From a virus, in the IMG/VR virus record IMGVR_UViG_3300029337_000071, positions 11,801-75,800 of that record: a stretch of 64,000 nucleotides of DNA; one strand, given 5' to 3'. Each line of letters begins with the position of its first letter. Position 1 is the stretch's first letter. The translations under genes and the position numbers were made by a program. The notes beneath the pieces are model-generated. The model did not search any database. It was not told the DNA's origin and saw nothing but the letters and a program-made list of their open reading frames with translations. This document shows positions 11,951 to 59,511 of the stretch, one piece after another.

Positions 11951-13096
11951 TTAGTTCATCATGTCGTAGATTCTCTTTAATCCGTCCTCATTGACATCAT
12001 TAAGCTTGCCATACTCAGCAATTACATTCTTAACAGATGCCTTTAGTTCTGCATCTTTGCACTCCTTGTACATCTTACGAATAACAGCATCTAAATCATC
12101 TGGATATGCAGAAGTTTCTGTTGTCTCTTCGATTGTATCCTCTACGGGTGTGTCGATATCATCAATATCGTCTTCCTCAATAGGATCAGGTTCAGTAACC
12201 TTTTCTTCCTTAACTGGCGTTGTCTTCTTAGGGGTAGACTTCTTACCGATAGTAGACTTTGACTTTTCCATACCTTCCTCGACTACTCTAATAAAATCAG
12301 CCGCCATATTAGGCTTATCAAATACCATATATTCTGGCACTGCACCATCTGCAAAACGTCCACCTGCATCAATAAGTGTTGTTCCTCTAAAATAAAGTTT
12401 ACGAACTGTATCTGTTGCATACTTCTTTACTTTATCCCCAACCTTCTTTTCTTCAAGGTCACGATCAATAACACCTGTAAGAGTTACATCAAAAATGTCA
12501 CCAAAAGCAGCTTCATAATCTGCTCCCATATTTGAAGATAACTGCATATATCCATCCTCTTCAAGACCACCCTTTTCCTTAATTGTCTTAAATTTAGTAT
12601 GTGCAATTACCCATACACCAAAACCTGCATCTTCAAGCTTTGTCATATAAGGCTTAATAATATCATTTGCAGAATACTTCTCTCCTGCTGTATATCCACC
12701 AAATGCAGCCTTAATTGACTTACACTTCTTGTTAGGATTTTCAACATTGCTTTGACGAATAGTTTCTGTATCTGCAATAAGTGCAAGCTCATCACCAGTA
12801 TCAAAAGCTACCATTTCAATATTGTGTTCCTTACCCTTCTCGTTAATTAACCAATCAGCTAATTCCTGTAAATCCTTATATGTCTTAACCTGAGTAGCAT
12901 TCAGATTATCAAGCATCTTATAACCTTTCTCATTTCCACAACCTACAAGCAAACCTCTTGATGGATCTCCATACTTTTCAAGAATTACATCTCTAAATAA
13001 TGTTGACTTGCCGAATTTCTTTGTACTCCTAAGATAGATTGATAAGTTCTTAATATCTGGTTTAATTACATTAATTGTTGGTTTCTGAAATGCCAT
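11951..13096 (-). CDS. AAA_24 (Sak4-like) recombination ATPase with acidic C-terminal extension
   Basis: Walker A STKKFGKSTL near the N-terminus and Walker B MVAFDTGDEL, typical of phage Sak4/AAA_24. Confidence 0.55.
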   Translation of the reverse strand: MAFQKPTINVIKPDIKNLSIYLRSTKKFGKSTLFRDVILEKYGDPSRGLLVGCGNEKGYKMLDNLNATQVKTYKDLQELADWLINEKGKEHNIEMVAFDTGDELALIADTETIRQSNVENPNKKCKSIKAAFGGYTAGEKYSANDIIKPYMTKLEDAGFGVWVIAHTKFKTIKEKGGLEEDGYMQLSSNMGADYEAAFGDIFDVTLTGVIDRDLEEKKVGDKVKKYATDTVRKLYFRGTTLIDAGGRFADGAVPEYMVFDKPNMAADFIRVVEEGMEKSKSTIGKKSTPKKTTPVKEEKVTEPDPIEEDDIDDIDTPVEDTIEETTETSAYPDDLDAVIRKMYKECKDAELKASVKNVIAEYGKLNDVNEDGLKRIYDMMN

Positions 13097-19707: not shown

Positions 19708-20484
19708 CTAATTATTTATTCTCTGTTTTGCAATATCAAAATACTTTTCATCAAGCTCAATTCCGATAAACTTACGTTTATTATTCATACATGCTACACC
19801 TGTCGTTCCACTTCCCATACAAAAATCAAGCACAACATCTTCCTCATTTGAGAATGTTTTTACAAGATAATCCATTAAAAGCAATGGTTTTTGTGTTTCG
19901 TGAACTCTAATATCAATATCTGGACTATATGTTTTGGATTTAGCTGCCGTGATAGGACATTTATATGCTACTACGCTGATTGGATTTCTTGTTCCATCAT
20001 CAGGTTTTCTATTGCGTTTCATATTCCCATAAACATTATTTGTTTCACCATAAATACTCATTGTTTTTCTCTGTGTTAAAAACTCTTTTTCTTTAACTTC
20101 CCATTTCTGAGGATTGTATGTATATTTACCATTCTTAGCAAATACAATGATATTTTCGTGGACTTTCAAATGCTTCTGTTTATATTGCATACCACTCGCA
20201 GATTTATTTTTAAGCCAAATTATCTCTTCTCTAAAATTGTTGATATTGGAATTTATTAATTTTGAAGTAAATGGTTGGCTAGAAAATAGAACGATTGGCG
20301 AATCATCGTATGTGATTTTATAAAGCAAATCCCACATCTTATCAAATGGAATTACTTCATCCCAAGAACAAGCTGTTGTTCCGTATGGGATATCACATAT
20401 GACTGAATTTACTTTTACACCGTCATCAATTAGTTCTTGTAGTTTTACAAGACAATCTCCTTGCCATAATTCAATATTTTGCAT
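19708..20484 (-). CDS. DNA methyltransferase, beta class (N6-adenine or N4-cytosine; motif IV before motif I)
   Basis: VICDIPYGTT (DPPY-like motif IV) lies upstream of FCMGSGTTGVA (FxGxG motif I). Paralog of 36642..37400. Confidence 0.6.
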   Translation of the reverse strand: MQNIELWQGDCLVKLQELIDDGVKVNSVICDIPYGTTACSWDEVIPFDKMWDLLYKITYDDSPIVLFSSQPFTSKLINSNINNFREEIIWLKNKSASGMQYKQKHLKVHENIIVFAKNGKYTYNPQKWEVKEKEFLTQRKTMSIYGETNNVYGNMKRNRKPDDGTRNPISVVAYKCPITAAKSKTYSPDIDIRVHETQKPLLLMDYLVKTFSNEEDVVLDFCMGSGTTGVACMNNKRKFIGIELDEKYFDIAKQRINN

Positions 20485-22194: not shown

Positions 22195-23121
22195 TTATTC
22201 TCCAAAAATAATCTTCTTAGCCCAATTCATAGTTGTAGAGCCACACATCTTTCCAAAGAATTCACCAGCTTCAACAACCAATTCATTCTCTTCTTTCACA
22301 CAATCCTCAAAAATTCTCTTAGGTAAATTTTGTGCAACAATCTTCATATCTTGTGGTTCAATCTTTTCAGACAAAATGCCTTCATCAATCATTTTATGTA
22401 ATTCTTTCTGAACCCTATTCTTTGTAACAATTTGTTCTACTATATCAGAAGCTTTTGCTTTGGCAGCTAATTTCTGCGGATCTTCTACTTTCTGTTTGTG
22501 ATTGTCCTTCTTGATTTCACTGAATTGTGAGTTTACAATCTTTAAAACAAATGGGGTTCTTGAATTTGGATTGTTAAGTTCTGTCTGATTCTTAACAACA
22601 ATTCCTTCAGGAACATCAACTGCAATATCTGACTTGTACATAAACGACATACAATGCTCCCAAGAGATAAATTCTCCATCATAAAATGTCTGTACATATC
22701 TTAAATTCAACTCATCAGCGAGTCTCTTAACCTTTGACTGTGGTAGATAACACTCGTTTTCCTTATCATATACATCATAAAAATAAAATTTCTTATATGC
22801 ATCCTGAATATATTTAATGGTATGAGAAGTCAACCATTCACCAAAGAATACATAGTTTGGATATTTTGAAAATGGTTTGACTGCTAACATCTGTACCCAA
22901 TTCCAAAATCCATTTAATGTATTGTTGTAATCAAGAGTCTGTCTTCTTGAAAATGCAACTAATTTATTTGTTTCTATGTCATATGCAATAGCTGAATTGC
23001 TTCCATCTACCTTTTCCTGAATTACAATATGATCTCCTACATGAAAACCACCTGTGTTTGCTACTGTTAATTCCGTATCTTCTTTGATACGTGATATATC
23101 CATAAATTTCTTCTGATCCAA
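22195..23121 (-). CDS. ATP-dependent RNA ligase, Rnl2-like (T4 RnlB family)
   Basis: Nucleotidyltransferase motif I EKVDGSN (KxDGxN), motif III FFGEW, motif IV EGIVVKN, Lys-rich motif V. Confidence 0.6.
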   Translation of the reverse strand: MDQKKFMDISRIKEDTELTVANTGGFHVGDHIVIQEKVDGSNSAIAYDIETNKLVAFSRRQTLDYNNTLNGFWNWVQMLAVKPFSKYPNYVFFGEWLTSHTIKYIQDAYKKFYFYDVYDKENECYLPQSKVKRLADELNLRYVQTFYDGEFISWEHCMSFMYKSDIAVDVPEGIVVKNQTELNNPNSRTPFVLKIVNSQFSEIKKDNHKQKVEDPQKLAAKAKASDIVEQIVTKNRVQKELHKMIDEGILSEKIEPQDMKIVAQNLPKRIFEDCVKEENELVVEAGEFFGKMCGSTTMNWAKKIIFGE

Positions 23122-26185: not shown

Positions 26186-27058
26186 TTAATAATTTGTGAT
26201 TAATACCTCGCAATCGGCACTCTTGTCCTTTTTCTGATAATTACAGTTGCTATAATCACCATTAAGATAATGAATGTTATATTTATTTTTCCATTCATCT
26301 AATAACGGATTATCATATTTAAGATTGTTGCTTAGTGCAAATCTGCCATGCTTGTCCACAACATCTAACACACTTAACAAATCTTTCTCGTCCTGTTCTG
26401 ACCAACCGCCATTTTCGTTATAAGTAGCAACTGAGTTGTAATATGGTGGATCAACATATATAAAATCGTCTGCAAAAAAATTACATTCTCTAAAATCTTT
26501 ATTCCAAAATTGAATGTCTTTTTTATGCATTTCATCAACAAAAGTCTTTAATTTTTCTTGTAGGGAAATATTATAATCACGTTTTCCATAAGGCATATTA
26601 AATTCACCTTTAGAATTGAATCGTATCTGATTACTAAACGAACACGTTATAAGTGTATAGAATTTAATCCAATCAGGATTAGAGTTGTATGCTTTTCTTA
26701 ATTCAAAGTATTTAGGCTTATTATATTCGCCAAGACCTTTACTTGACTCACATCCATATACTTCATAACCATTAAGATCAGACCTGCTTAATCCAAAATC
26801 AGATATGGTTTTTAAAATCATATTATGAATATACTCAGAATCATTATTGTAGAAATGTTCCAATAAATCTACCACCTGTTTACAAATATCATTGTAAACC
26901 AAATGCTTTACTTCAATGTTAATCCCAACATTAAATCCACCACCAAATAAATCTACAAATGTATTAATATCTTTTGGTATAAGGGGTATAATCTGTGGCA
27001 GTAACTTATACTTGCCTCCGACATAATTTAGAGGCGATTTGATATATGTATTTTTCAA
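26186..27058 (-). CDS. Dam-family (D12 class) N6-adenine DNA methyltransferase
   Basis: N-terminal NYVGGKYKLLPQI...VDLFGGGFNV (motifs X/I) and FIYVDPPYYNS (DPPY). Confidence 0.65.
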   Translation of the reverse strand: MKNTYIKSPLNYVGGKYKLLPQIIPLIPKDINTFVDLFGGGFNVGINIEVKHLVYNDICKQVVDLLEHFYNNDSEYIHNMILKTISDFGLSRSDLNGYEVYGCESSKGLGEYNKPKYFELRKAYNSNPDWIKFYTLITCSFSNQIRFNSKGEFNMPYGKRDYNISLQEKLKTFVDEMHKKDIQFWNKDFRECNFFADDFIYVDPPYYNSVATYNENGGWSEQDEKDLLSVLDVVDKHGRFALSNNLKYDNPLLDEWKNKYNIHYLNGDYSNCNYQKKDKSADCEVLITNY

Positions 27059-28122: not shown

Positions 28123-28857
28123 TTAGAAATTTGGATAGAATGAAGGCATAAGCTGAAGCTTGAACAAATTCTTTTCATGCATTGAATCAATCTTAGCTTT
28201 TACATCCTCATCATCAATCTCTCCTGTTCTGATATATCTATCAAGAGTGTCATAAGTGAATCCAAGGTTATCCTCGTCAGTCTTTCCACAAAGACCGTCA
28301 GTAGGTGTCTTATCTACTAACTCAGATGGAAGTCCTAATTCACGACCAATAGCCTTAACTTCCGAAACTGTAAGCTGTGATAGTGGTGCAAATGAACCAA
28401 ATCCGTCACCTCCGAAGGTCGCATAACCAACCCAATCCTCGGAAAGATTACAATTACAACTTGGGATGCCGTTATTACACTGAGCATAGAAATACAATTC
28501 TGTCATTCTAACTCTTGCAGGAGCATTTACTTTAGCCTGTTCTGTAACAACTACTCCATTTGATTCCATTTCAGAAATAATAGAATCAACGGTTGAACCA
28601 ATATTAATAATTTTGTATTCAATCCCAAGATGATTTGCACATAGAATACTACAGTCAATATCTGACTGTTCATGCTGCGGTAGCATAATAGCTTTTACTC
28701 TATCTTTTCCCAATGCCGCAACACATATAGCCGCAACTACAGACGAATCTTTCCCACCAGATAGTGCGATACAACAATTCTTATCTGGGAATTTTTCTTC
28801 AAACAAATTTTTAACCCATTCAATCACGTCATTTGTTACTGTTTTTGCATCAAACAT
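28123..28857 (-). CDS. nadE: NH3-dependent NAD+ synthetase
   Basis: PP-loop ALSGGKDSS; NAPARVRMTELY; GYATFGGDGFGSFAPL...KTPTDGL parallels E. coli NadE GNEKARERMKAQY / TKYGDGG...PTADL. Confidence 0.7.
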   Translation of the reverse strand: MFDAKTVTNDVIEWVKNLFEEKFPDKNCCIALSGGKDSSVVAAICVAALGKDRVKAIMLPQHEQSDIDCSILCANHLGIEYKIINIGSTVDSIISEMESNGVVVTEQAKVNAPARVRMTELYFYAQCNNGIPSCNCNLSEDWVGYATFGGDGFGSFAPLSQLTVSEVKAIGRELGLPSELVDKTPTDGLCGKTDEDNLGFTYDTLDRYIRTGEIDDEDVKAKIDSMHEKNLFKLQLMPSFYPNF

Positions 28858-28874: not shown

Positions 28875-29501
28875 TTACATTCGATTCATTACATCATAAA
28901 ATCGTATCAAATATTCATATACATTCTCAGGAACTAACTCTTTTACCTTTTCAAATTCGCCCTTTTCACACAAATTTCTAACCAAACTTGATGAAGTATG
29001 ATTTTCTGGTATTTGAATTTCTGTAAAATGATCCTTATATTCCATTAAATTAGCTTCTTCTAAAGCATCGTTAAGATTCTGCCCTTCTCTGACACAAGCA
29101 ACAAAATGATATTCTTCTACAAATGGTTTCCAGTTGTACCAACTTGTCAGAGTTTGAATATTGTCCATCCCTAAACAGATATAATATTCGTTGAATTTAT
29201 ACTCTTTTTCTACTTCATCTCTTAGCTGTGTTATTGTATTGTATGTTCTTTGTGGAAAGAAACTCGTTGTCTCTATATCTAATGCTTTCATGTTATACTT
29301 ATCACAATTTGGCATTGAATTTATTAATGATACTCGACAATAACCAGGGATTAATGTTCTTTTCTTTGCCACATAAGTATCATGAGCTGGAATAAAATAT
29401 ATCATGTCGGCATTAACTGCATTTTTAGCAGCCAATGCCATACCCACATGAGCATTTGTAATAGGATTAAAACTTCCTGGAATAAGCAAAATCTTATTCA
29501 T
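28875..29501 (-). CDS. nadD: nicotinate/nicotinamide mononucleotide adenylyltransferase
   Basis: IPGSFNPITNAHV (nucleotidyltransferase (H/T)xGH motif). Start at MNKILL has GGAGAA 7 nt upstream. 8-nt overlap with pncB. Confidence 0.6.
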   Translation of the reverse strand: MNKILLIPGSFNPITNAHVGMALAAKNAVNADMIYFIPAHDTYVAKKRTLIPGYCRVSLINSMPNCDKYNMKALDIETTSFFPQRTYNTITQLRDEVEKEYKFNEYYICLGMDNIQTLTSWYNWKPFVEEYHFVACVREGQNLNDALEEANLMEYKDHFTEIQIPENHTSSSLVRNLCEKGEFEKVKELVPENVYEYLIRFYDVMNRM

Positions 29502-30702
29502 GTGACATTCTCCAATCAATACATCTGTTCAGATAATCTACATATTCAGGATTCTTACACATACCTTTGCCTGTTACATCTGAAACCTTTGCAACATCCA
29601 TACCATTACATTTTGTTGTTTTCATAACAATATTAAGTGCAGGAACATCTGTATCATTGCTTAAATAAGTACCAATTCCAAAAGCAACATTAACTCTATC
29701 GTGGAAATATCTGAATAACTTGTCGGCTCTTTCAAAATCAAGACTATCGCTAAATAACAATGTCTTCGTCTTAGGATTGATGCCTAAAGACTCATAATGA
29801 GCAATCATCTTTGCGCCCCACTCATAAGGATCTCCACTATCATGTCTGACACCACTAAACAATGTTGCATAAGTCAACTGGAAATCTTTAAGGAAACAAT
29901 CTGTTGTAATTGTATCTGTAAGAGCAATACCATTTAATACTCCATACTCCTTAACCCATGCATCAAGAGCATACCAATTTGAATATGCAGGATTGTGCTT
30001 ATGATTCCCCTGTCCTGTACACATAATCCATTCATGAGCCATTGTTCCAACAGGTGTAAGATTATATTTCTTTGCAAGATACACGTTACTTGTACCTACA
30101 AATTTTGAAGGACTATGTAATGTATCATTTAAATGTGAAAACTTCTCAACAGCTAACTCCTGTGCTTCAGCAGAAAGTCTACGTCTCAGACCAAATTCTG
30201 AAAAAGTACCTGCATACCAATGACCACTTCTAAGATTTTCATACTTCTCATCAAGTCTCTTTTTAAAACTTTCAAATAATTCATCATAGTTATAAGCCAT
30301 TCTGAAATAAACTTCATTGACGATAGCAAGAGTTGGAATCTCATACATAGAAGTATTAAGCCATGTTCCTCTTGTCTCAATCGCCAATCCACACTCCGCA
30401 TCAGTTGTTATTTCAAAATCTTCATATCTTGGCTGCCATAATCTCAGAAAATCTACATATGAACCTTTCATCCACTTGATATTATCAATATAAGACAGTT
30501 CTTCTTCTGTAAATCTAAGACCACAATATAATTTAATCTGTCTCTTGATTTCCTCTACCATTTCGGGTGTAAAGAATACATCCTTGTTACGACATTTAAA
30601 ACTCCAAGTAGTCTTGTAATCGCTAAACTGATGATAAATCGCTTGTCCCATACTGAACTTATACGCATCTGTTTCTAACAAACTGTTAATGATCTGCTCC
30701 AT
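29494..30702 (-). CDS. pncB: nicotinate phosphoribosyltransferase
   Basis: Collinear similarity to E. coli PncB: LLETDAYKFSMGQAIYH; FVGTSNVYLAKKYNLTPVGTMAHEW; GIALTDTITTD; SGVRHDSGDPYEWGAKMIAHYESLGINPKTKTLLFSDSLD; AFGIGT; NIVMK..CNG..VAKVSD. Confidence 0.75.
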   Translation of the reverse strand: MEQIINSLLETDAYKFSMGQAIYHQFSDYKTTWSFKCRNKDVFFTPEMVEEIKRQIKLYCGLRFTEEELSYIDNIKWMKGSYVDFLRLWQPRYEDFEITTDAECGLAIETRGTWLNTSMYEIPTLAIVNEVYFRMAYNYDELFESFKKRLDEKYENLRSGHWYAGTFSEFGLRRRLSAEAQELAVEKFSHLNDTLHSPSKFVGTSNVYLAKKYNLTPVGTMAHEWIMCTGQGNHKHNPAYSNWYALDAWVKEYGVLNGIALTDTITTDCFLKDFQLTYATLFSGVRHDSGDPYEWGAKMIAHYESLGINPKTKTLLFSDSLDFERADKLFRYFHDRVNVAFGIGTYLSNDTDVPALNIVMKTTKCNGMDVAKVSDVTGKGMCKNPEYVDYLNRCIDWRMSHE

Positions 30703-34498: not shown

Positions 34499-35251
34499 TC
34501 ATTCTCTTATCTCAAACAACTTTTCTACAGCTTTCTCACCTGTGACTCTATCTGACTTCTGTAACACTTTACGTTCTTTCTGCCAAATACACTTAAAATC
34601 ATCAGGCATATTATATTCACTTACTAACACTATATTATTCTCTGAAAGTTTACGAAGAAAATCGTAGAATTCGTCATAGTCGATTGACTGTTTAGAATAC
34701 TGTTTTGTATTACGATATGGTGGATCGAAATAGAAGAGGCAGTTCTTATAATCTGCAAAGTCTTTATAATCACAACATCTAAATTCAATATCATTCAAAT
34801 CAGGAATTTGTGTCCTAAAGTTCTTCAGTCTCTCATTGTAAATACTTCTACCACCCTTAGAATCTCTGCCATATCCACCATCAAAATATCTGCCACCATA
34901 AGATGCACAATATCCAATAAGTGCTATATACTCTTTTGAATATTTATGTGTTCCAAGTTTCCTATCTTCTCTCACATCGGCATAATGTTCAAATGTGCAT
35001 ACATCTGGTGCAATAGATAAATCATTATCAGACTGAGCATATTTCAATAAAGCAATTAGTTCTTCGTTGATGTCAGCTCCTATCTTCTTATCACATTTAA
35101 TCTTATCAATTAAATTTGCTCCACCCACCATAGGTTCTATGTAAGTTGTAATATTGTTATCATCAATATACTTCTGAATAATTGGCACTAAAAATTTTGC
35201 CAATCTGTTTTTACTTCCTTGATATACCATTCCATTACCAGAAAGTGACAT
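34499..35251 (-). CDS. Dam-family (D12 class) N6-adenine DNA methyltransferase
   Basis: MVYQGSKNRLAKFL...EPMVGGANL and FYFDPPYRNT. Paralog of 40388..41113. The start codon lies inside the 42-bp conserved element. Confidence 0.6.
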   Translation of the reverse strand: MSLSGNGMVYQGSKNRLAKFLVPIIQKYIDDNNITTYIEPMVGGANLIDKIKCDKKIGADINEELIALLKYAQSDNDLSIAPDVCTFEHYADVREDRKLGTHKYSKEYIALIGYCASYGGRYFDGGYGRDSKGGRSIYNERLKNFRTQIPDLNDIEFRCCDYKDFADYKNCLFYFDPPYRNTKQYSKQSIDYDEFYDFLRKLSENNIVLVSEYNMPDDFKCIWQKERKVLQKSDRVTGEKAVEKLFEIRE

Positions 35252-35296: not shown

Positions 35297-36121
35297 CTAC
35301 TTCACATATAAACTTTCATACACAATACTATCATTTGATTTACCAATAGTACGCTTAAAGCTGCTATTACCACTAAGTAAATATTCGTGTCGTGTATATA
35401 CATCTTCTGGAACATTCCATGTATTGTCTATATCCCCACTCTTACCATCGAATGATAAAGCATACTTGCAAGGTAAACTCCTCAAATAATTCCAAAACTT
35501 CTCATAATCAATTGTTCCATAATACATACCCTTTGTATTGGCATAAGGTGGATCAAGATACAAGAAGTCGTTATCTGTTGGGTTAATATCTTCATAAGAA
35601 CAACTGATAAACTCTACATTATTTTTCTTCAGCATATGACTCCACTCAAAAATAATCTTTTCAAAAGTTTCAGGAATAATACCATTTCTTGTTACATGAA
35701 AAGAATTATTAAATTCACCATCACGATTATATCTTGGCATACCATTAGTAGTAGTTCTCATAATGAACATAAAATCTAATGGATTATGTTCTTTATTGTA
35801 TCGTTCTCTTACACTTGCAAAATATTCTTTTTTACGTTGTTTGTCATCATCAACATTTAACTCATTCCAGAGTTTCTTATAATAAAAATAAACTTCTAAT
35901 GGATTATTGATAATCTCTTTCCATAAATCAATTAACCCGCTATTCAAATCACTACATACATAATGATTAACTTTGATGTCGCTATCTAATAATCTCCTTA
36001 ATACAGACGCTCCACCACAAAACGGTTCATAATATGTATCAATTTCTTTTGGAAAGAATGTCAGTATCTTTTCTGCCTGACTTCTTTTACTTCCACTCCA
36101 TTTAATTACTGGTTCGTACAT
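35297..36121 (-). CDS. Dam-family (D12 class) N6-adenine DNA methyltransferase
   Basis: KWSGSKRSQAEKIL...EPFCGGASV and LYLDPPYANT. Confidence 0.6.
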   Translation of the reverse strand: MYEPVIKWSGSKRSQAEKILTFFPKEIDTYYEPFCGGASVLRRLLDSDIKVNHYVCSDLNSGLIDLWKEIINNPLEVYFYYKKLWNELNVDDDKQRKKEYFASVRERYNKEHNPLDFMFIMRTTTNGMPRYNRDGEFNNSFHVTRNGIIPETFEKIIFEWSHMLKKNNVEFISCSYEDINPTDNDFLYLDPPYANTKGMYYGTIDYEKFWNYLRSLPCKYALSFDGKSGDIDNTWNVPEDVYTRHEYLLSGNSSFKRTIGKSNDSIVYESLYVK

Positions 36122-36641: not shown

Positions 36642-37400
36642 CTATGTTGCACTCATTAATAAATCCTGATGAGCATATTCAGCTACTCTCTTACTTCCAA
36701 CCTCAAAAATATCCTTATCTTTCTCAAAACATATGTAATTTCTACCTGTATTTAAAGCTGCGACTGCCGTTGTACAACTTCCTGCACATGAATCAAGAAC
36801 TAAATCTCCTGGGTTGGTGTATGTCTTGATAAAATATTCACATGCTTCAACAGGTTTTTGACACTGATGCAAGCTACTTTTCTGAGTATCCCACTTAAAC
36901 TGCAGAACATCTCTTGGATATCTTTGTGTACTACCACCACCTGAAATGCCAGTCTTTGTAGCACCATAACAATTACCATCTGTTGTATGTTTTGTATAAG
37001 AATGGACAGGTGTATGTCCTTCTGTCATTTGTGGATTGTAAGTAGGGAGTTTCTTATAGAAAATCAAGACATTTTCATGAGCCTTCATCGGCATTTTCTT
37101 TGCGTTTAGATGACCAGTTGCTTTGGTCTTTTCAATAACCCATTCATAACGATATAGCTTTTCATTACTACAAGCGAGTCTCTTATCAAATGGTGACTGT
37201 GCCCATAATGCAATACAGCCATTATCTTTGATAATTCTCTCGTATTGTTCCCATAACGACTCGAATGGAATTAGCACATCCCATGAATTCTGGGTTGTTG
37301 AAAACGGCAGATCCGTGAAGATAAAATCAATTGATTTATCATCAATCTTTTTCATACCTTCAAGACAATCTTCGTTGTATATTTTGTTAATCTCTAACAT
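36642..37400 (-). CDS. DNA methyltransferase, beta class (N6A/N4C)
   Basis: IFTDLPFSTTQNSWD (motif IV) precedes DSCAGSCTTAVA (motif I). Paralog of 19708..20484. Confidence 0.6.
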   Translation of the reverse strand: MLEINKIYNEDCLEGMKKIDDKSIDFIFTDLPFSTTQNSWDVLIPFESLWEQYERIIKDNGCIALWAQSPFDKRLACSNEKLYRYEWVIEKTKATGHLNAKKMPMKAHENVLIFYKKLPTYNPQMTEGHTPVHSYTKHTTDGNCYGATKTGISGGGSTQRYPRDVLQFKWDTQKSSLHQCQKPVEACEYFIKTYTNPGDLVLDSCAGSCTTAVAALNTGRNYICFEKDKDIFEVGSKRVAEYAHQDLLMSAT

Positions 37401-40387: not shown

Positions 40388-41113
40388 TTACTTAGAACTT
40401 TTATTTTTATACACAAACAGCTTTTCTCTTCGAAAATCCTTAATGCTATTACACTTTCTATTGCTGTCAAATGTAATCTTAACTTGTTTCTCCCAAATGC
40501 AATCAAAGTCATCTGGCATTGAATATTCACTTATAATGACAATATTGTCTTTAGACATTTCTCTACACCATTGATAAAATTGTTCATATGGAAATTCACC
40601 TGTTTTATATTTTGTTGTATTTTTATACGGTGGATCGCAATATATTACATACCCATGTAAGTTAGAATAATCTAAAAATGAAGCTGTTCTAAAATGGATA
40701 TCTTTAAGATTTGGAGCTTGCTTCATACATGATTTGTAAGAATAAATATCTCCACGATGTTTAGCATCATCACGCTTTGCATAACCCCCAAACCACTTTG
40801 CTCCAAAACTAAGTTCATATCCTATATACCCTGTTATAAAATCAGAATACTTGTCAGGATTATTTTTTACATCAATATAAAATTCTTTCGATACTTCTTT
40901 TGGTGGTTCAATTCCTTGCTGCAAACCAATAAGTACAGAGATTACATATTTATCAATATCGCTTCCTATCTTATTGTCGCATTCAATTTTATCAATAATA
41001 TTTGCACCACCTACGAATGGTTCTAAATAACCATTGCATCCATTGTCTATGTAATTCTGTATAATCGGTACAATTTGTTTTGATAACCGATTTTTGCTTC
41101 CCATGTAAATCAT
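40388..41113 (-). CDS. Dam-family (D12 class) N6-adenine DNA methyltransferase
   Basis: MIYMGSKNRLSKQIV...EPFVGGANI and IYCDPPYKNT. Paralog of 34499..35251. Confidence 0.6.
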   Translation of the reverse strand: MIYMGSKNRLSKQIVPIIQNYIDNGCNGYLEPFVGGANIIDKIECDNKIGSDIDKYVISVLIGLQQGIEPPKEVSKEFYIDVKNNPDKYSDFITGYIGYELSFGAKWFGGYAKRDDAKHRGDIYSYKSCMKQAPNLKDIHFRTASFLDYSNLHGYVIYCDPPYKNTTKYKTGEFPYEQFYQWCREMSKDNIVIISEYSMPDDFDCIWEKQVKITFDSNRKCNSIKDFRREKLFVYKNKSSK

Positions 41114-41186: not shown

Positions 41187-42155
41187 TTAATATTCCCAAT
41201 CATCATTTCTAACCTGGAATACATCGCCACACTCTTCAATATCTGGATAATTATATGTGGCAACATTCATAGCATATTTATCTATTTCATACGCTTTATA
41301 TATAATATTTGTAAATCCCATTTTTTCTAAACAATATCTACCAGTAGCAATACCATCATATAAGCTTAGAACTTCAATAGGATAATCTCGTGGAACATTC
41401 TTTAATCCCTGATTTAAAATATGAATAATTACCTCTGACGTCCATCCATTACCAATACATTTATAACGTTGCGTTTCAGGAACACCATTACATAATGTAT
41501 AATTATCAGGTAACGTCTGTAATCTTTCTGCTTCTAAGGGATTTAATTTTCTTACTTCTCCATTGATAAGATACAATCCAGTTTTTGCACCTCTTCCACC
41601 ACCATTGGCAGACAAAGTGCATGATTTACCATTTATGGAATATACTCTTTCACCTTGTCCACCTTTACCAATAGTGCCAATTCTAACAAGTTTATTGTTA
41701 TCCTTAGTATCATCTCTGTTATTAAATTTGACCTCATTTATTAAGTTTTCTTTGTGGAATTCAACATCAAGAATATCTTTCACTCTTATACCTTTATCTA
41801 TAATGTTTTTTAGATCAATATTGAGATTAGTAGCATAAATACGATGTCGAGTTTGTGCTGATAATAATGCACTGTTGATATGTAATAGATTAACATTTAA
41901 TCGTTTTTCGATTTCCTTTTGAATTTCTTTTGATATACTTTCGTTGTTTTCATATAAAAATATATCTGGTTGCCATTTTTCTTTCGCAATTAAATAATTT
42001 TTAAATAATTCCCATCCTGTACCTTCACAAGTGGTTTCTCTTCTTTCGGGTGATTGTGAGATTGACCAAAATGTACAAGGCGAACCACCTATTAACAAAC
42101 GTAATGGTCGTCCATTAAGCTCACAATAATTATTTTTTTCTTTATTCTCTGTCAA
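41187..42155 (-). CDS. C5-cytosine DNA methyltransferase with permuted motif order (IV-VI-VIII ... X-I-II); TTG start without SD
   Basis: Motifs in order: GGSPCTFWS (IV, PC), LYENNES (VI, ENV), QTRHR (VIII), IGNGW (X), then C-terminal LSLYDGIATG (I) and AYEIDKYAMNVATYNYP (II). Confidence 0.5.
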   Translation of the reverse strand: MTENKEKNNYCELNGRPLRLLIGGSPCTFWSISQSPERRETTCEGTGWELFKNYLIAKEKWQPDIFLYENNESISKEIQKEIEKRLNVNLLHINSALLSAQTRHRIYATNLNIDLKNIIDKGIRVKDILDVEFHKENLINEVKFNNRDDTKDNNKLVRIGTIGKGGQGERVYSINGKSCTLSANGGGRGAKTGLYLINGEVRKLNPLEAERLQTLPDNYTLCNGVPETQRYKCIGNGWTSEVIIHILNQGLKNVPRDYPIEVLSLYDGIATGRYCLEKMGFTNIIYKAYEIDKYAMNVATYNYPDIEECGDVFQVRNDDWEY

Positions 42156-50014: not shown

Positions 50015-50087
50015 CTAGGCTGGTGGGACTTGAATCCACGAATGTCAGAATCAAAATCTGATGTGTTGACCACTTCACCACATCCCA
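50015..50087 (-). tRNA. tRNA-Gln(UUG)-like, 73 nt, with non-canonical pairs; no encoded CCA
   Basis: Hand-folded. Acceptor UGGGAUG/CAGCCUA pairs 6 of 7. D-arm GUGA-AGUGGUCA-ACAC. Anticodon arm UCAGA-UUUUGAU-UCUGA is perfect, with U33 and A37. Variable loop is 5 nt. T-arm GUGGA-UUCAAGU-CCCAC. Confidence 0.4.
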
Positions 50088-50133: not shown

Positions 50134-51003
50134 TTACTTATCTGTTACAACTGTATTGTTAGTTCCAGAAATAGTAACCCAACCAAATTTATTTCTTGCT
50201 TCGGCTTCCTTCATTCTTATAAGCTCATCTGTAATAGAAGAACTTAACTTATTATTCGCCTCTGCCTGTGCTTTGGCTTCGATTAACTGTGCATCAGCCT
50301 TTGCTTGTGCTTCTGCCTTAGTTACTTCTGCATCAGCCTTTGCCTTATTAATAGCTGTCTGATTATTAATTTCCTGAGTTTCGGCTGCCTGCTGTGCTGT
50401 AATCTTTGCATTAATAGCTTCCTGTGTCTTTGTATCAACGGAAATATTAATCAATGATACATTACTAATCGCTATACCATATGGTTCAAACTTCTTATTA
50501 AGATAATCAGTTAATGCTGTATTTACATTTGCTCTTTCAGAACCAAGAATATCTGACACCTTATAGTTAGCAACAATTTCTTTAGTCCAAGAAATAATGT
50601 TAGGTTTAATAAAACTGTCTCTTACTTCCTTTCCAGATTGTCCTCTAAATCTTGTAAATAGATCAGCTACCTTATCAGGACTATACTGATATGTAAATGT
50701 AAGATCTATCTGCATAGCCTTACCCTCAGATGAACTCGCTGAAAAGCTGTCATCATCTTTAGAGTCTCCGTCCTTACCAGATGTTAAATAACTCTGTTCA
50801 AGACTCACCGAGTAAAGTGTCGTTTTTACAGTTGGTGACTTTAAATGCCATCCTTGTGTAAGAATATCGCCTTTTACTCCACCCGACATACTGTACTGTA
50901 CGGCAATATAGCCAGCAGGTACACGCACACTTGACATAAATAATAATATTGCTACAACAACAATTACTACTACTGTTACTACTCCTCCGATTGTTTTCTT
51001 CAT
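50134..51003 (-). CDS. SPFH/band-7 (prohibitin/HflC-like) domain membrane protein
   Basis: N-terminal TM helix, then an SPFH-like core and a C-terminal Ala/Lys/Glu-rich coiled coil. Confidence 0.55.
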   Translation of the reverse strand: MKKTIGGVVTVVVIVVVAILLFMSSVRVPAGYIAVQYSMSGGVKGDILTQGWHLKSPTVKTTLYSVSLEQSYLTSGKDGDSKDDDSFSASSSEGKAMQIDLTFTYQYSPDKVADLFTRFRGQSGKEVRDSFIKPNIISWTKEIVANYKVSDILGSERANVNTALTDYLNKKFEPYGIAISNVSLINISVDTKTQEAINAKITAQQAAETQEINNQTAINKAKADAEVTKAEAQAKADAQLIEAKAQAEANNKLSSSITDELIRMKEAEARNKFGWVTISGTNNTVVTDK

Positions 51004-51276: not shown

Positions 51277-51312
51277 GTTTTGTATCTATGTTAAATTAAA
51301 CATATCTAAAAC
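51277..51312 (-). CRISPR. orphan degenerate CRISPR-like repeat (unit C) downstream of the nuclease gene
   Basis: GTTTTGTATCTATGTTAAATTAAACATATCTAAAAC is about 26 of 36 identical to the array repeat. Confidence 0.5.
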
Positions 51313-51420
51313 CTCAAATCACACAGATACTATTAACATAGATTCTAACGAGTGCCATTAATTAACAACCTCGCCATTCAGGTGCAAAATCACCTGCAAT
51401 CTTACGATTGATTAAGTAGC
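51313..51420 (-). ncRNA. conserved structured RNA element E1 (candidate tracrRNA/omega-RNA-like scaffold), directly after the nuclease stop codon
   Basis: Starts CTCAAA; contains hairpin CAGGTG-CAAAAT-CACCTG (51379..51396). Homologous to E2 and E3. Confidence 0.45.
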
Positions 51421-51422
51421 AC

Positions 51423-52811
51423 TTAAGCTACTTTATTATTCTCTGAACCATTCTTACTTTGTTCATATTTTTCAGAGATATCATAATATTCTCTTGCTTC
51501 CTGTTTACTCTTTTCAGTAACTTGTCCACTTCCCATCCAAAGAGTTGACATTGCAATGTTTCTGGCAGCATTGAAGTCTGCATTAAAACCAGTTTTTTCA
51601 TATTTTTTATGACTATCACAATTCTCATTTGCACATTCAAATACTGACTGTGACTTTCTCTGACCAAACTCCCAATTACCACATACACTACAAATCTGTG
51701 ATGTATAACAAGGATTGATTTTTCTTACTTCTATTCCGTATTTAGCTGCTTTATATGTAATATAATCTTGAAGTTTATAATAACTCCAATTTCTCAGGAT
51801 AAAATCACTTGTATCATATCCTGTTAAATTCTCAATATTTATGTATTTAGCATTATGTTTTAAAGCAAAATCAACGACTCTTTTACTTATCATATGACAA
51901 TATGTTTCAACAAAATGTACTTCTGCTTTCTGCAATCTTTCTAATGCTTTCAGTTTCTTTGCTCTACCATGACCACCAGAAGTATTTCGTAATGACTTCT
52001 GTAATCTTTTTCTCTGAGCTTGCATTTTAGTTCTTATTCTTAGAAAATCATCTGCATTTCCAATTGCCAATCTCTCGTAAAGATTATTGTTTAAAGCACA
52101 CATAGCAGGAACTGCAATGCCTAAATCAACACCTACTACTATATTTTCATCCAGCTCTCTAAGTTGTTTTGGAATAGATATTGAGAGATTTAAAATGATT
52201 GACTTACCATCAATTTCAATGCTACTTCCTTGCACTTTATAATTCTCTTCTAATATATTCTGAATAACAGATCTTAACTCTAATGACCTATGCGGATTGC
52301 CAAACACAACCTTAAATACAATTTTATTAACCCACTTGACATATACCGCCAAATCAGAATCATTAATCTTGTCTAAAAAATCATGATATGTTTCATACTC
52401 ATGATAAAAAGTTAAGTTTCTGCCTCTTGTAATAAGTGGATTAGTTCTCTTATAATTTGTTACAGTTCGTTCACCTTTAGCCAATCCATTCTTTAAAGCT
52501 GTGCTGAAATCCTGCTTGACTTTCTGAGTAACGGCTGATGGAGTGTCTACACCAGTTGCAAAATCAATATCTTTTAATATGATATTAGAGTTTGTCATTA
52601 TTTCTTTCTGTCTTGCCTTAAATTCTTCATTCTTAATATCACGATTATATTTGTAATATTCACTCATAAGCTGTCCCATAAGCAGGTTACAAGCCTGATA
52701 TTGAGCATACTGACCATTTCTAATAAAATCATATACTCTATTGATTTCATCCTTATCTCCTACTGGAAATAATTTAATTTTTCTACAAATTGTCATTCTA
52801 TTGTTTCCCAT
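51423..52811 (-). CDS. cas12f: Cas12f (Cas14)/TnpB-family RNA-guided nuclease, 462 aa
   Basis: RuvC-I VGVDLGIAVPAMCALNN; Arg/Lys-rich bridge QRKRLQKSLRNTSGGHGRAKKLKALERLQK; RuvC-II INIENLTG; zinc finger CYTSQICSVCG...ECANENC; RuvC-III NADFNAARNIA; N-terminal KIKLFPVGD. Collinear with Cas14a/Un1Cas12f1 from memory. Confidence 0.7.
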   Translation of the reverse strand: MGNNRMTICRKIKLFPVGDKDEINRVYDFIRNGQYAQYQACNLLMGQLMSEYYKYNRDIKNEEFKARQKEIMTNSNIILKDIDFATGVDTPSAVTQKVKQDFSTALKNGLAKGERTVTNYKRTNPLITRGRNLTFYHEYETYHDFLDKINDSDLAVYVKWVNKIVFKVVFGNPHRSLELRSVIQNILEENYKVQGSSIEIDGKSIILNLSISIPKQLRELDENIVVGVDLGIAVPAMCALNNNLYERLAIGNADDFLRIRTKMQAQRKRLQKSLRNTSGGHGRAKKLKALERLQKAEVHFVETYCHMISKRVVDFALKHNAKYINIENLTGYDTSDFILRNWSYYKLQDYITYKAAKYGIEVRKINPCYTSQICSVCGNWEFGQRKSQSVFECANENCDSHKKYEKTGFNADFNAARNIAMSTLWMGSGQVTEKSKQEAREYYDISEKYEQSKNGSENNKVA

Positions 52812-52892
52812 AATTTGTAAATCTCCTTTTATATTTTTTGTAATTTTAAATATCTCTAAAATTAAACAGTTTACAAGTACAACAACGCAAGT

Positions 52893-53059
52893 GTTTTATA
52901 CCTATGTAATTTTATATGTATCTAAAACTGTCATTAACTTTTATTTTCATATTTTTAGTTTTATACCTATGTAATTTTATATGTATCTAAAACGTATAGT
53001 TTGCCACTATATCTGCAAATGGTGTTTTATACCTATGTAATTTTATATGTATCTAAAAC
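52893..53059 (-). CRISPR. mini CRISPR array 1: three identical 36-nt repeats (GTTTTATACCTATGTAATTTTATATGTATCTAAAAC) and two spacers of 29 and 30 nt
   Basis: Repeats at 52893-52928, 52958-52993 and 53024-53059. Spacers are tgtcattaacttttattttcatattttta and gtatagtttgccactatatctgcaaatggt. Strand is uncertain; minus is inferred from the co-oriented gene and leader-like E elements. Confidence 0.7.
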
Positions 53060-53158
53060 CTCAAACTTATTACATAGATTTTCATGAGTTGCATTGCACT
53101 CACGATTCGGCAGTAAAATCTACCGCAATAGAATTGATTTTAATTTCATTTATATATT
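53060..53158 (-). ncRNA. conserved structured RNA element E2 (candidate scaffold/tracr-like or leader) between the two arrays
   Basis: Starts CTCAAA; hairpins GAGTTGCATTGCACTC and CGGCAG-TAAAAT-CTACCG (53108..53125); contains an inverted copy (ATTACATAG) of the repeat core. Confidence 0.45.
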
Positions 53159-53322
53159 CTTTTAATGAGATGTAATTTTATATACTTCTAAAATTTTATA
53201 ACTTGTGTCGATATATATCATGTAATTTTGCTAGTATGTAACTATACTTCCAAAACAACTGAAACATCTCCTCTCTGTTGCCAGGTATTTTGTTAGTATG
53301 TAATTTCATATACTTCCAAAAC
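53159..53322 (-). CRISPR. mini CRISPR array 2: three degenerate repeats (36, 32 and 36 nt) and two 30-nt spacers
   Basis: Repeats at 53159-53194, 53225-53256 and 53287-53322 (ATTTTGTTAGTATGTAATTTCATATACTTCCAAAAC type). Spacers are tttataacttgtgtcgatatatatcatgta and aactgaaacatctcctctctgttgccaggt. Confidence 0.55.
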
Positions 53323-53405
53323 TTCAAATTACATATAAATTACATACTTTTCAGTGAGTGATATAATCCTCACTATTCGGACTCAAAATAGCCCGTAGTC
53401 AAAAG
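53323..53405 (-). ncRNA. conserved structured RNA element E3
   Basis: Starts TTCAAA; hairpins GTGAGTGATATAATCCTCACT and CGGACT-CAAAAT-AGCCCG (53378..53395); contains an anti-repeat-like ACATATAAATTACATA. Confidence 0.45.
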
Positions 53406-53487
53406 ACTAATTGTTATAGGATAAACTGGCTTGAATTAGCCAAATAGATTTGTTATAATAGAACATATATAGTTTATCCTATATTTT

Positions 53488-55651: not shown

Positions 55652-56308
55652 TTAATTAAATAATAATGATATGTATTCGTATGACTTTAGAATCTTCATA
55701 CAGTCTAATAATTGTTGTTCTGTTATATGTAATAATTCCATAATTTCATCTCGATTGTATTCTTGAGAAAATAACTTTGCTACGCCTCTAACTCTTTTAG
55801 GTAAATTGCTAAGATATAGTTCAACCTTATCTGTATATTCCTCCGCAATGAGAATATCTTCTATGTTTATCTTGGATGATAGTGTTTCTTTTAAATTCTG
55901 TGTTTCGTCACTATCCAAGTCAAATGAAACATTGTCAATTCTTATAGGTCTTTTCTTGCCATTAACATCTTCATATATAATCTTTCCATTACCATCTCTG
56001 GCAAGATTATTTCGGCAGCCTGTATATTTATTATCCCGAAACCAACTGTAAGACGATCTTGAAATATTACTCGTTAGGTAAGTTTCAAATTTTGCCTTAC
56101 TTTTAGCGTCATATGTAACTAAAGATTCTATTAATACTTCTATAGCATCGTCAAGCAATTCATCTTCTTCGTAATTATCAACCTTACCTTTCCATATTTT
56201 ATAGCAAATATTTTTTAACTTCTTCATTTCATTTGCCATATATAAATCAAGTATTTCTGACAATTTAGGATTGTTTTTAATAACCAACATCATTTCTTTA
56301 TTAATCAT
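55652..56308 (-). CDS. sigma-70 family RNA polymerase sigma factor-like protein
   Basis: C-terminal region-4-like HTH LSNLPKRVRGVAKLFSQEYNRDEIMELLHITEQQL. Confidence 0.45.
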   Translation of the reverse strand: MINKEMMLVIKNNPKLSEILDLYMANEMKKLKNICYKIWKGKVDNYEEDELLDDAIEVLIESLVTYDAKSKAKFETYLTSNISRSSYSWFRDNKYTGCRNNLARDGNGKIIYEDVNGKKRPIRIDNVSFDLDSDETQNLKETLSSKINIEDILIAEEYTDKVELYLSNLPKRVRGVAKLFSQEYNRDEIMELLHITEQQLLDCMKILKSYEYISLLFN

Positions 56309-57708: not shown

Positions 57709-58059
57709 CTATATCATAGCCAGACTTATTTTCATCGCTTCCATAACACGAACATTATCATCATTAGATAAATTACCAATCTTAAACTTTAGTCTATCTT
57801 TATCTATTGTGGTAATTTGTTCAAGAGCTACAACAGAATCGTGTTTTAATCCGTTGAATTTATCTTTATGTAACTCAACGTGAGTTGGTAATTCCCTTTT
57901 AGACTTCGTAGTTATAATGGCAATAATAGTGGTAGGGCTAAATTTATTTCCAATGTCATTCTGAAGTATTAACACTGGTCTTCTACCACTCTGTTCAGAA
58001 CCCTGAGAATCATATCTACCTACATCTGCGAAGTATATTTCACCACGTTTTATGTCCAT
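57709..58059 (-). CDS. mazF: MazF/PemK-family endoribonuclease toxin
   Basis: RGEIYFADVG...GSEQSGRRPVLILQND...SPTTIIAIITTK...GLKHDSVVALEQITTID. Start at MDIKRG has AAGGAGGG upstream. Confidence 0.6.
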   Translation of the reverse strand: MDIKRGEIYFADVGRYDSQGSEQSGRRPVLILQNDIGNKFSPTTIIAIITTKSKRELPTHVELHKDKFNGLKHDSVVALEQITTIDKDRLKFKIGNLSNDDNVRVMEAMKISLAMI

Positions 58060-58207
58060 TGCTTTAGCCCTCCTTTCTCTGTTTGTTCCTTTGATATTTT
58101 GTATTATATACTTCACTATATATATTGTCAAGTATTATTACAATTATTTTTTATATTTATTTTTTCTTTTATATATGGTACTCTATGTATATAGGAGGAT
58201 TGCATTT

Positions 58208-58494: not shown

Positions 58495-59511
58495 TCACAT
58501 ATTATTTAGTACATCTTTCATTCCCACTGCTCCATTTGCATAATTTTTGACAGTTGTTTTTACACTACTATGCCCAAGCTGCTGTTGTACGAATGCAAGA
58601 TTTCCATTTTGATTCATTACAGTAGCATAATAATGTCTCATCATATGTGCAGTAATACCATTTCCGTAATTTTCAAATATCTGCTTAATATTTTTCTCTG
58701 TTGTACGTGTTCCGTTTTTATTAATAAAAACTGCTTCTGTATCAATAATATTATCCAATGTCAACCTATACTCTAACCACTCTTTCAATGCTTTTAAGGC
58801 TGATCCGCTAAGATATACGGTTCTATTTTGCATTTCTCTGTACACACCTTTGCCAAGAATAGTAATGTATGGCATTTCTTCCTTCAAATGTAAATCAGAT
58901 AAATCTAAGCCAGCAAGCTCTGACTCTCTTATACCAGTGCCCCTTAATACCCTAAAGATAGCAATATTCCTATTTTTTACTGCAATATCCTTTTTCCACA
59001 TTATCTTCTCTTCCATGTCATTAAGCTGCTTTTCTGTTGGAAGTTTTTTTATTAAGTTGTTTCCAGATGGGATTCCCTTATATTTAATCATTTTGTAAAA
59101 ATCTTCTATATTACTATAAACTTCTCTTAACAAACACTCTCTGTATGAATAAATATCCTGTATAAAACTTTTAATGATATTTTTCCTTGTTTCTGTTGTG
59201 GTTGGTGACATTCCATTTGTTTCCTTATATCTAAGATATGAACTAATATTTTGTGGTCTTAGGTCATTAAAATCAGAAACTTCTATTTCAGAAATTGATT
59301 TCTTATTAATAATATTACTTTCAATCAACCACTGTAAAAAATCTTTAATTGCCACTAAATAATTTAGCGCTCCGTTTTTGCTTTCCAACTCATTTAAGTA
59401 ATCTCTTAAAAATTGTGGTGCATTTAACTCATCTAATTTTTTATTAAGCTTCTCCGCATTTTTATTCTGCACTTCTATTTTATAACACATTATCATCAAC
59501 CTACCTTTCAT
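58495..59511 (-). CDS. tyrosine recombinase/integrase
   Basis: C-terminal catalytic region TAHMMRHYYATVM...LGHSSVKTTVKNYANGAV (R..H..R/H..Y). Confidence 0.6.
   Translation of the reverse strand: MKGRLMIMCYKIEVQNKNAEKLNKKLDELNAPQFLRDYLNELESKNGALNYLVAIKDFLQWLIESNIINKKSISEIEVSDFNDLRPQNISSYLRYKETNGMSPTTTETRKNIIKSFIQDIYSYRECLLREVYSNIEDFYKMIKYKGIPSGNNLIKKLPTEKQLNDMEEKIMWKKDIAVKNRNIAIFRVLRGTGIRESELAGLDLSDLHLKEEMPYITILGKGVYREMQNRTVYLSGSALKALKEWLEYRLTLDNIIDTEAVFINKNGTRTTEKNIKQIFENYGNGITAHMMRHYYATVMNQNGNLAFVQQQLGHSSVKTTVKNYANGAVGMKDVLNNM

Follow-up and report, generated by a model that had tools for sequence, protein, structure and literature searches.

The DNA analyzed here, which we call the window, is a stretch of 64,000 nucleotides (nt) from the IMG/VR virus record IMGVR_UViG_3300029337_000071 (positions 11,801 to 75,800 of that record), and our subject is a region of it in which three related elements, E1, E2 and E3, stand next to direct repeats and flank a gene of the Cas12f1 family. 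Between positions 51200 and 53450, we found 36-nt direct repeats of one family (GTTTTATACCTATGTAATTTTATATGTATCTAAAAC on the plus strand), spaced 65-66 nt, plus diverged copies. Read on the minus strand, the order of the features is E3, array A3 with two spacers, E2, array A2 with three spacers, cas12f, E1, and a single repeat. We are confident that this region is a phage-borne, type V-F1-like CRISPR locus with Cas12f, to be read on the minus strand.

Repeat arrays and nuclease gene

Array A2 spans positions 52827-53059 on the minus strand, as do all locus features whose coordinates follow, and consists of repeats at 53024-53059, 52958-52993 and 52893-52928, a degenerate repeat at 52827-52862, and spacers at 52994-53023, 52929-52957 and 52863-52892. 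Array A3 (53159-53322) has repeats at 53287-53322, 53225-53256 (with an indel) and 53159-53194 (degenerate, and directly abutting E2), with spacers at 53257-53286 and 53195-53224. The single 36-nt repeat A1 (51277-51312) is spacer-less in the window and is followed by a conserved trailer with a hairpin at about 51263-51245. The indel-bearing repeat of A3 and the degenerate repeat upstream of the gene had been missed in the original prediction, an earlier reading of this DNA from its letters, which had placed E1, E2 and E3 immediately behind a repeat, each beginning with (C/T)TCAAA. On the plus strand, we do find a 36-nt repeat and then (C/T)TCAAA at 51313, 53060 and 53323. The accompanying idea that each E is fused behind a terminal repeat had to be turned around: on the minus strand, which we take to be the transcribed one, E precedes the first repeat.

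The open reading frame (ORF) between E1 and the array of E2 (51423-52811) encodes a 462-amino-acid protein with RuvC-triad and zinc-ribbon motifs. It matches Cas12f1-like_TNB in Pfam (1.7e-15) and guided_TnpB in NCBIfam (2.8e-47), and, in a comparison with the PDB, the closest solved structures were 8hr5 (1e-87), which we take to be CnCas12f1, and 9nzp (2e-81). The latter is RhCas12f (PMC13186708). Across the window protein and 11 homologues with 60-83% identity, no variation is seen at E327, D412 and C374/C377/C393/C398 and little at D229 (conserved in at least 90%); judging from the motifs VGVDLG, INIEN and NADFNAARN, residues D229, E327 and D412 probably form the RuvC triad. Cas12p (“Cas12 hacker”), which we weighed as a phage-borne candidate, is only a remote relative (E-value = 0.002).

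Close relatives of the protein are encoded on 25 viral contigs of IMG/VR (sized 7-186 kb; on 19, the identity is 95-100%) and in nine bacterial genomes or metagenome-assembled genomes, from Clostridia and others. Among GenBank phages, no close relative of the nuclease was found, the best match having 32-38% identity, and the phage lineage is known to us from metagenomes only. The locus holds the same position in more than 19 related phages. E1 begins about 10 nt past the cas12f stop codon, while E2 and E3 lie less than 600 nt upstream of the gene, and in all related loci (cited below by L numbers where they have to be told apart) the scaffold likewise stands beside the cas12f gene. Just upstream of E1, a hairpin flagged as a palindrome (51414-51433) extends across the stop codon, and a 58%-identical locus (L022, about 4127-4150) has an equivalent stop-codon hairpin made of other stem bases, GGTAGC-GTAAT-GCTACC. 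Candidate roles for this hairpin are a processing site, an attenuator, or a part of the scaffold.

Common predicted fold of the three E elements

E1 (51313-51412), E2 (53060-53136) and E3 (53323-53410) align with one another and, when each was folded together with its repeat as minus-strand RNA, the three units showed one common architecture, with z = -3.1 to -5.4 (-3.3 for E1 and -5.4 for E3). This fold comprises stem 0, which is short; stem 1, with 6 bp and the loop AUUUUR; stem 2 (GYGAG...CUCRY); and, in all three copies, a duplex of 11-12 bp in which an anti-repeat in E pairs with the neighboring repeat at its positions ~20-30. The stem-1 loop is, moreover, complementary to the last bases of the repeat (UUUUG/CAAAA in E1 and E3, UUUUA/UAAAA in E2), and such a pseudoknot between loop and repeat tail is, according to the Cas12p paper, characteristic of the trans-activating CRISPR RNAs (tracrRNAs) of Cas12. 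With stem 0, stem 2, the duplex and the pseudoknot besides stem 1, the elements are larger than had been described; the features that had been described, namely shared sequence blocks, a near anti-repeat in E3, and an inverted 9-mer of the repeat in E2, are all present.

In E1, stem 0 lies at 51410-51397, stem 1 at 51396-51379 (loop AUUUUG), stem 2 at 51376-51346, the anti-repeat at 51343-51333 and the junction with the repeat, AUUUGAG, at 51319-51313. The corresponding parts of E2 are found at 53136-53126, 53125-53108 (loop AUUUUA), 53105-53082, 53079-53069 and 53066-53060 (junction GUUUGAG), and those of E3 at 53409-53396, 53395-53378 (loop AUUUUG), 53375-53352, 53348-53337 and beyond for an extended anti-repeat, and 53329-53323 (junction AUUUGAA). 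Each anti-repeat fits the repeat variant of its own array and covaries with that repeat. Stem 0 pairs by eye in each window copy, and also in the computed folds of E1 and E3.

Stem 1 bears on the question of strand. It had been proposed that each element contains a 6-bp stem with a YAAAAT loop (CAGGTG/CACCTG, CGGCAG/CTACCG and CGGACT/AGCCCG) in which the sequence differs between copies while the pairing is preserved. These sequences are present, but on the plus strand the pairing is not complete, with a mismatch at position 4 in E2 and E3 (C.A and A.C). Since C.A and A.C on the plus strand correspond to U.G and G.U wobbles on the minus strand, the pairing of stem 1 is fully kept only on the latter. 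No terminator-like site was seen between the anti-repeat and the repeat, and a search of the locus against Rfam yielded no match that reached the gathering threshold and, at E-values up to 10, nothing but noise.

Covariation across related loci

We built a covariance model from 12 diverse modules, including the three window copies, that describes stems 1 and 2 and the repeat:anti-repeat duplex; stem 0 was omitted because MAFFT aligned it inconsistently. On both strands of the window, this model had exactly three matches, all on the minus strand, at 109-115 bits and an E-value of ~1e-18: 51405-51274 at E1 (108.9 bits), 53134-53021 at E2 (110.9 bits) and 53404-53284 at E3 (115 bits). The next-best match in the window had an E-value of 0.45. 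Across related sources, the model found 87 copies in 33 sources, and 87/87 lay on the strand of the nuclease gene.

The compensatory changes that had first been noticed between the three window copies extend to homologous loci, where stem pairing is kept with changes on both sides. In the 73 distinct copies on which we computed covariation statistics, standard pairs made up 96.8% of the cells, versus 28-48% when the partners were slid by 1-3 columns, both-sided changes occurred at 24 of the 29 pairs, and none of 500 column shuffles reached any of the observed measures. Four helices covary, namely stem 1, stem 2, the anti-repeat:repeat duplex, and the pseudoknot between the loop and the repeat tail. 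Both-sided changes were found at 10 of the 11 pairs of the duplex, and the pseudoknot (loop AUUUUR with YAAAA) was computed to be 99.4% paired, with exchanges between G-C and A-U (49 versus 14) and between U-A and C-G (58 versus 7). Cells with G.U outnumbered those with A.C by 151 to 22 (7:1), and this excess, too, points to the minus strand as the sense strand. An RNA read from the plus strand was rejected on the C.A and A.C mismatches of stem 1, the count of G.U versus A.C, the common orientation of all 87 model matches with the gene, and the side on which the protospacer-adjacent motif (PAM) lies, as described below. A 42-amino-acid ORF on the plus strand over E2 (53047-53175) was dismissed because it overlaps the covarying RNA.

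Kinship with characterized Cas12f1 tracrRNAs

The tracrRNAs of RhCas12f1, CnCas12f1 and Cs1Cas12f1 have been validated experimentally, and their sequences are available (PMC10090079, Supplementary Data 1). The 5' part of the Rh tracrRNA reads ACGGUUG-AUUUAG-CAACCG, AAGU, CUGAGGG...CCACUCGG, and the repeat end UAAAU of Rh, Cn and Cs1 complements the stem-1 loop (PMC10090079). The phage elements resemble these three tracrRNAs in the 6-bp stem 1, the AUUUAR loop that complements the 3' tail of the repeat, the GAA linker and stem 2 (YUGAGG...CCACUCRG), and the likeness to this clade extends to the nuclease family and to the NCCA class of PAM (PMC10090079; PDB 9NZP, 8HR5). In L072, the native locus of a protein that is 95% identical to Rh-type, the model of the phage modules detects the Rh-type tracrRNA (3771-3899; 27.2 bits, E-value = 3.6e-4, a modest score to which only the alignment of stems 1 and 2 contributes), and it is because of this detection that we place E in the Rh-type tracrRNA lineage. 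In all likelihood, each E is a tracrRNA-type scaffold of the CnCas12f1/RhCas12f1 kind that directly adjoins the repeat with which its mini-array begins. The proposal that the elements are tracrRNA-like or omega-RNA-like scaffolds, duplicated with each array, agrees with what we find, as they flank a Cas12f1-family gene, contain four covarying helices and an anti-repeat, and are homologous to the Rh-type tracrRNA.

The phage clade nevertheless differs from the Rh-type locus in its layout. Whereas L072 has a single tracrRNA after the gene and, ~190 nt later, an array of 11 repeats, 30 nt each, and spacers of 36 nt, the phage scaffold is contiguous with the first repeat, the arrays have only 1-4 repeats of 36 nt with 30-nt spacers, and several modules of scaffold plus array accompany one nuclease (three here, up to six in L022 and L023). 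Rh/Cn loci have repeats of 29-30 nt, compared to 36 nt here, and Rh-type spacers are 36 nt long, compared to 30 nt. Stem 3 of Rh/Cn (CUUGGUC...GACCAAG) is absent from the phage scaffold, while the repeat:anti-repeat duplex is longer in the phage, with 11-12 bp instead of 7.

In L022 (4150-5260) and L023 (4160-5220), loci with 55-58% identity in the best tblastn segment, the modules stand in tandem, five to six of them downstream of the gene, and have divergent repeat variants. Two scaffold subtypes are seen there, one of which exchanges stem 1 for another hairpin followed by UACGCCGAA and resembles the published Cb3Cas12f1 tracrRNA. Tandem units of scaffold, repeat and spacer have been reported for the Cas12f family, to which those of L022 and L023 are alike. 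These reports, however, mostly concern nuclease-dead, sigma-factor-linked proteins of Bacteroidota or describe the units only briefly, whereas here the nuclease motifs are intact, the carrier is a gut phage, each scaffold stands at the head of a mini-array that takes up spacers, and the DNA targeted is foreign.

Spacer gain at the junction of E and repeat

In 34 loci, we counted 79 distinct spacers, which vary even between phages that share 96-100% identity in the nuclease. When 20 related phages are compared, their spacer series nest within one another, and every addition is at the E-proximal end. In A3, where related phages have one or two extra spacers at the end next to E3, the series runs s0 s1 (the window), s5 s0 s1, s28 s0 s1, s27 s28 s0 s1, and s33 s28 s0 s1, and A2 behaves alike. 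At E1, three loci (L002, L014, L019) have one spacer and a second repeat inserted between E1 and its repeat. As far as these sequence comparisons go, the arrays appear to be still acquiring spacers, though adaptation genes were not seen among the ~30 window ORFs scanned.

In the RNA model, the linker that leads from the anti-repeat to the repeat stays unpaired, yet its last seven bases are strongly conserved as ATTTGAG, after which the repeat starts with GTTTTAGA. This junction is found at 51313-51319, 53060-53066 and 53323-53329 on the minus strand of the window and in 65 modules of related loci. ATTTGAG/GTTT is known as the conserved leader-repeat junction of group-1 type II-A arrays (PMC5382924), and the first repeat together with the final 10 nt of the leader is reported to be enough for adaptation (review PMC5382924, citing Wei et al. 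2015). The phage arrays are like type II-A in this identical junction, in their 36-nt repeats and 30-nt spacers, and in a spacer gain that is polarized at the junction. They are unlike type II-A in the position of the PAM, which is found at the end of the spacer that faces the leader; this polarity is that of types V and I and weighs against simple loading by a II-A machinery.

This likeness raises the question of whether the E elements are CRISPR leaders and nothing else, i.e., promoter and integration signals that are conserved at the level of DNA and do not act as structured RNA. Within the unpaired linker, conservation is indeed highest in the part that equals the II-A group-1 junction, new spacers do enter at the E end, and there is a weak promoter-like site just upstream of E2. 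Four covarying helices with both-sided changes and a 7:1 excess of G.U over A.C are, however, not expected of a DNA signal, and E is homologous to a validated tracrRNA. In addition, collapsed relatives (Roseburia L030 at 4292-4377, Clostridium L031, and phages L005-L010 at the E1 position), which have lost the 5' half of the repeat and show a short hairpin, ACAAAA and the flank after stem 2, retain the scaffold without the junction and the array. We consider a leader function as the sole explanation very improbable; a leader role of the 3' end of E would be additional to its RNA role, not an alternative to it. Of the earlier view that the elements are a functional RNA and not a leader, the first half is upheld by the covariation of the four helices, while the second may have to be amended, as the 3' end of E also behaves as the leader end of an array.

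Protospacers and PAM

The first spacer of A2, ACCATTTGCAGATATAGTGGCAAACTATAC (52994-53023), has protospacers in 22 human-gut metagenome contigs. The 23-nt core used in the search is exact in 22/22; in 10 of these contigs, the identity extends over the full 30 nt, and in the others there are 1-3 changes beyond the 23-mer. The 5' flank of these protospacers is TCCA in 16, TCTA in 5 and TCAA in 1 of the contigs. The target lies within a small hydrophobic ORF, for which no Pfam family was found and which adjoins a Rep_3 replication-initiator gene in a 100-kb contig. A spacer of L001 matches the same target 6 nt downstream, with GCCA as the flank. Spacers of L007 and L010 match opposite strands of one site within an integrase-family gene on a 28.6-kb viral contig, flanked by TCCA and ACCA, and a spacer common to L014-L018 matches viral contigs of 42-49 kb with TCCA. 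Hence 5'-NCCA stands at all five of five independent protospacers in the orientation of minus-strand transcription, whereas in the opposite orientation the flanks of the four protospacers that we inspected by eye share nothing. Because NCCA lies 5' in the former orientation, the strand was fixed as minus. The PAMs listed for characterized members of the clade are TCCA, ACCA and CCCA (PMC10090079), and the occurrence of protospacers with the PAM of the clade indicates, on the evidence of the sequences, that the system is active.

Two of the viral contigs matched by the spacer of L014-L018 carry possible escape changes (L075 at 3772-3797 and L076 at 3174-3199), as TCCA has become TTCA in one and the protospacer has a 3-nt PAM-distal insertion in the other. 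The first A2 spacer had 0 exact matches in IMG/VR, the conserved A3 spacer and the third A2 spacer matched exactly only arrays of related phages there, and the 79 spacers, searched in concatenated form against GenBank phages, gave matches at chance level only. Within the window and the fetched loci, no self-targets were found for the spacers, and none for the trailer that follows the E1 repeat.

These targets also bear on the possibility that the units of E and repeat are RNA decoys (RNA anti-CRISPRs or viral single-guide RNAs) by which the phage mimics the CRISPR RNAs of its host, thereby sequestering or redirecting a host nuclease such as type II-A Cas9. Such a role would fit 36-nt repeats that start with GTTTTAGA, end with AAAAC, are preceded by ATTTGAG and are separated by 30-nt spacers, as in type II-A, and natural single-guide RNAs of phages that subvert Cas9 have been described (bioRxiv 10.64898/2026.06.01.729453). 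Against it, all phages that we examined have a cognate Cas12f gene within the locus, the scaffold belongs to the tracrRNA type of Cas12f and not of Cas9, the spacers turn over and match foreign elements with the 5' PAM of the Cas12f clade, and a consistent Cas9-like 3' PAM was not seen by eye at four protospacers. We judge it highly unlikely that the units serve as decoys.

Possible guides in cis and in trans

A transcript of E, repeat and spacer would be expected to fold on itself, with the anti-repeat pairing to the 3' half of the repeat, the stem-1 loop forming the pseudoknot with the terminal bases of the repeat (YAAAA), and the 5' half of the repeat protruding as a loop. In line with this, the cis hairpin is the minimum-free-energy fold in three out of three copies. 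The product would be a natural, single-guide-like RNA that resembles the omega RNA (right-end element RNA, reRNA) of TnpB and has the first spacer as its guide, while the later repeat-spacer units would be served by E scaffolds that pair in trans. The complex of Cas12f and RNA would then cut DNA with 5'-NCCA beside the protospacer, the targets being other mobile elements of the human gut, and the last bases of E (ATTTGAG) together with the start of the repeat (GTTT) would form the leader end where new spacers insert. Transcription, cis versus trans folding, and RNA processing are the parts of this scheme that we infer. We lean, by a small margin of belief and on the modeled folds, the collapsed versions in relatives and the lack of a terminator-like site before the repeat, toward the first unit of each array acting as a natural single guide.

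Such an arrangement would be intermediate between the single guide RNA of a transposon and the usual CRISPR system of two RNAs. As with the omega RNA of TnpB, a scaffold immediately 3' of the nuclease gene precedes the guide, so that a single transcript could supply both; in the model of “functional RNA splitting” put forward with TranC, type V guides arose by splitting of the transposon reRNA (cited in bioRxiv 10.64898/2026.03.27.714800). The order of E, repeat and spacer and the predicted cis fold are compatible with an RNA made of a scaffold and then a 3' guide, and collapsed single-guide versions exist in relatives. Unlike in an omega RNA, the guide position is occupied by a full CRISPR repeat with exchangeable spacers, and the later array units need a scaffold in trans, such that split and unsplit guides would coexist. 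In one related locus (L029, 4680-4900), the final ~90 nt of the cas12f coding sequence have been duplicated along with a module of scaffold plus repeat, which fits an origin of the modules by duplication of a gene-proximal, omega-RNA-like unit. In L072, a serine-recombinase (resolvase) gene (1799-2413) lies directly upstream of cas12f and recalls the TnpA-TnpB organization of IS607.

That the gene is simply a mobile TnpB, with E1 and its repeat as the omega RNA of the transposon right end and E2 and E3 as remnants of other insertions, is very improbable, for although E1 begins right after the stop codon where omega RNAs lie, NCBIfam assigns the protein to guided_TnpB, the L029 module carries the 3' end of the gene and, in L072, the Rh-type gene has a resolvase gene as its neighbor, a Pfam scan of flanking ORFs (which did not include every small ORF, transposon ends not being searched for) gave no transposase family indicative of IS200/IS605 or IS607, the position of the locus is the same in more than 19 related phages, and the repeats alternate with variable spacers of 30 nt whose matches in foreign DNA adjoin a 3-base PAM, as in CRISPR.

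We return to the reading of the region as a Cas12f locus with scaffolds contiguous with their arrays. Several points weigh against it. Only one spacer of the window has an identified target, the other PAM examples coming from related phages, and none of Cas1, Cas2, Cas4, Csn2 and Cas9 was found among the ~30 window ORFs scanned. A promoter scan gave nothing above chance in this AT-rich DNA. The alignment used for counting pairs was fitted to the model and is thereby biased toward structure, and many of the 73 copies come from close phage relatives, which means that the cell counts overstate the number of independent events. A model-free MAFFT seed alignment displays the same pairs and exchanges, among distant loci.

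More tentatively, E might combine three functions, serving as tracrRNA scaffold, as the 5' part of a single-guide RNA, and as a leader that mimics the type II-A signal so that the integrase of the host loads spacers for the phage Cas12f. The repeat would then be bipartite, with a 5' half for the integrase and a 3' half for Cas12f, and the locus would be a living intermediate of reRNA splitting, since the first unit of each array would be unsplit and the later units split. We hold this combined proposal to be possible but unlikely as a whole.

Relation to described natural guides

Natural single guides have been described as tracr-L and as viral single-guide RNAs (vsgRNAs) of phages, both of which carry their guide 5' of a Cas9 scaffold (bioRxiv 10.64898/2026.06.01.729453). 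These RNAs are regulators or anti-CRISPRs and come without a phage-encoded nuclease, and the same report contains no natural guides of Cas12f or type V, mentioning Cas12 as general background only (bioRxiv 10.64898/2026.06.01.729453). The units described here are like tracr-L and the vsgRNAs in being naturally fused RNAs of scaffold and guide, some of them phage-encoded. In a limited literature search, which did not extend to the original publications on TranC and OMEGA, we found no description of nuclease-competent phage Cas12f loci in which several scaffolds are fused to growing mini-arrays via a type II-A-like junction. The tracrRNAs of Cas12f1, the idea of reRNA splitting, and single-guide RNAs of phages (for Cas9 only) are already known, while the cis-fused, multi-copy modules of tracrRNA and array appear to be new.

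Surroundings of the locus in the phage genome

The locus is flanked by genes for a PemK/MazF-type toxin (57709-58131), a tyrosine integrase (58495-59511), an SPFH/Band-7 membrane protein (50134-51003), and tRNA-Gln(UUG) (50015-50087); the integrase suggests that this phage of 146-186 kb may be temperate. At 55652-56308 on the minus strand, 2.2 kb upstream of E3, a gene encodes a protein similar to sigma-70 region 2, a weak match below the Pfam cut-off. Dead homologues of Cas12f partner with sigma factors; the nuclease of the window retains its catalytic motifs.

Seven DNA methyltransferase genes lie within 23 kb, all on the minus strand (19708-20484, 26186-27058, 34499-35251, 35297-36121, 36642-37400, 40388-41113 and 41187-42155). 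Four are D12-class N6-adenine, two are N6/N4 and one is a C5-cytosine methyltransferase, and together they probably give the phage genome broad protection against restriction. Genes for NAD (nicotinamide adenine dinucleotide) synthase and nicotinate phosphoribosyltransferase stand close together (28123-28857 and 29494-30702, minus strand) and may serve the phage to replenish NAD+ against NAD-depleting defenses. A replication module at 3977-13096 comprises a DnaE-type polymerase III alpha, a DHH/RecJ-like protein, a DnaB-like helicase and an AAA_24 ATPase, and an RNA ligase gene is found at 22195-23121.

Implications

The arrays of these phages gain spacers against plasmids and rival phages with adaptation genes not in sight. 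If the type II-A-like junction recruits the integrase of the host, this would be a new viral route to exploit host CRISPR adaptation. For the nuclease itself, which has 462 amino acids and a short NCCA PAM, the modules offer compact natural designs of a single guide. And because one nuclease appears to use both forms of guide side by side, the origin of type V systems via the splitting of guides becomes testable on a defined set of sequences.

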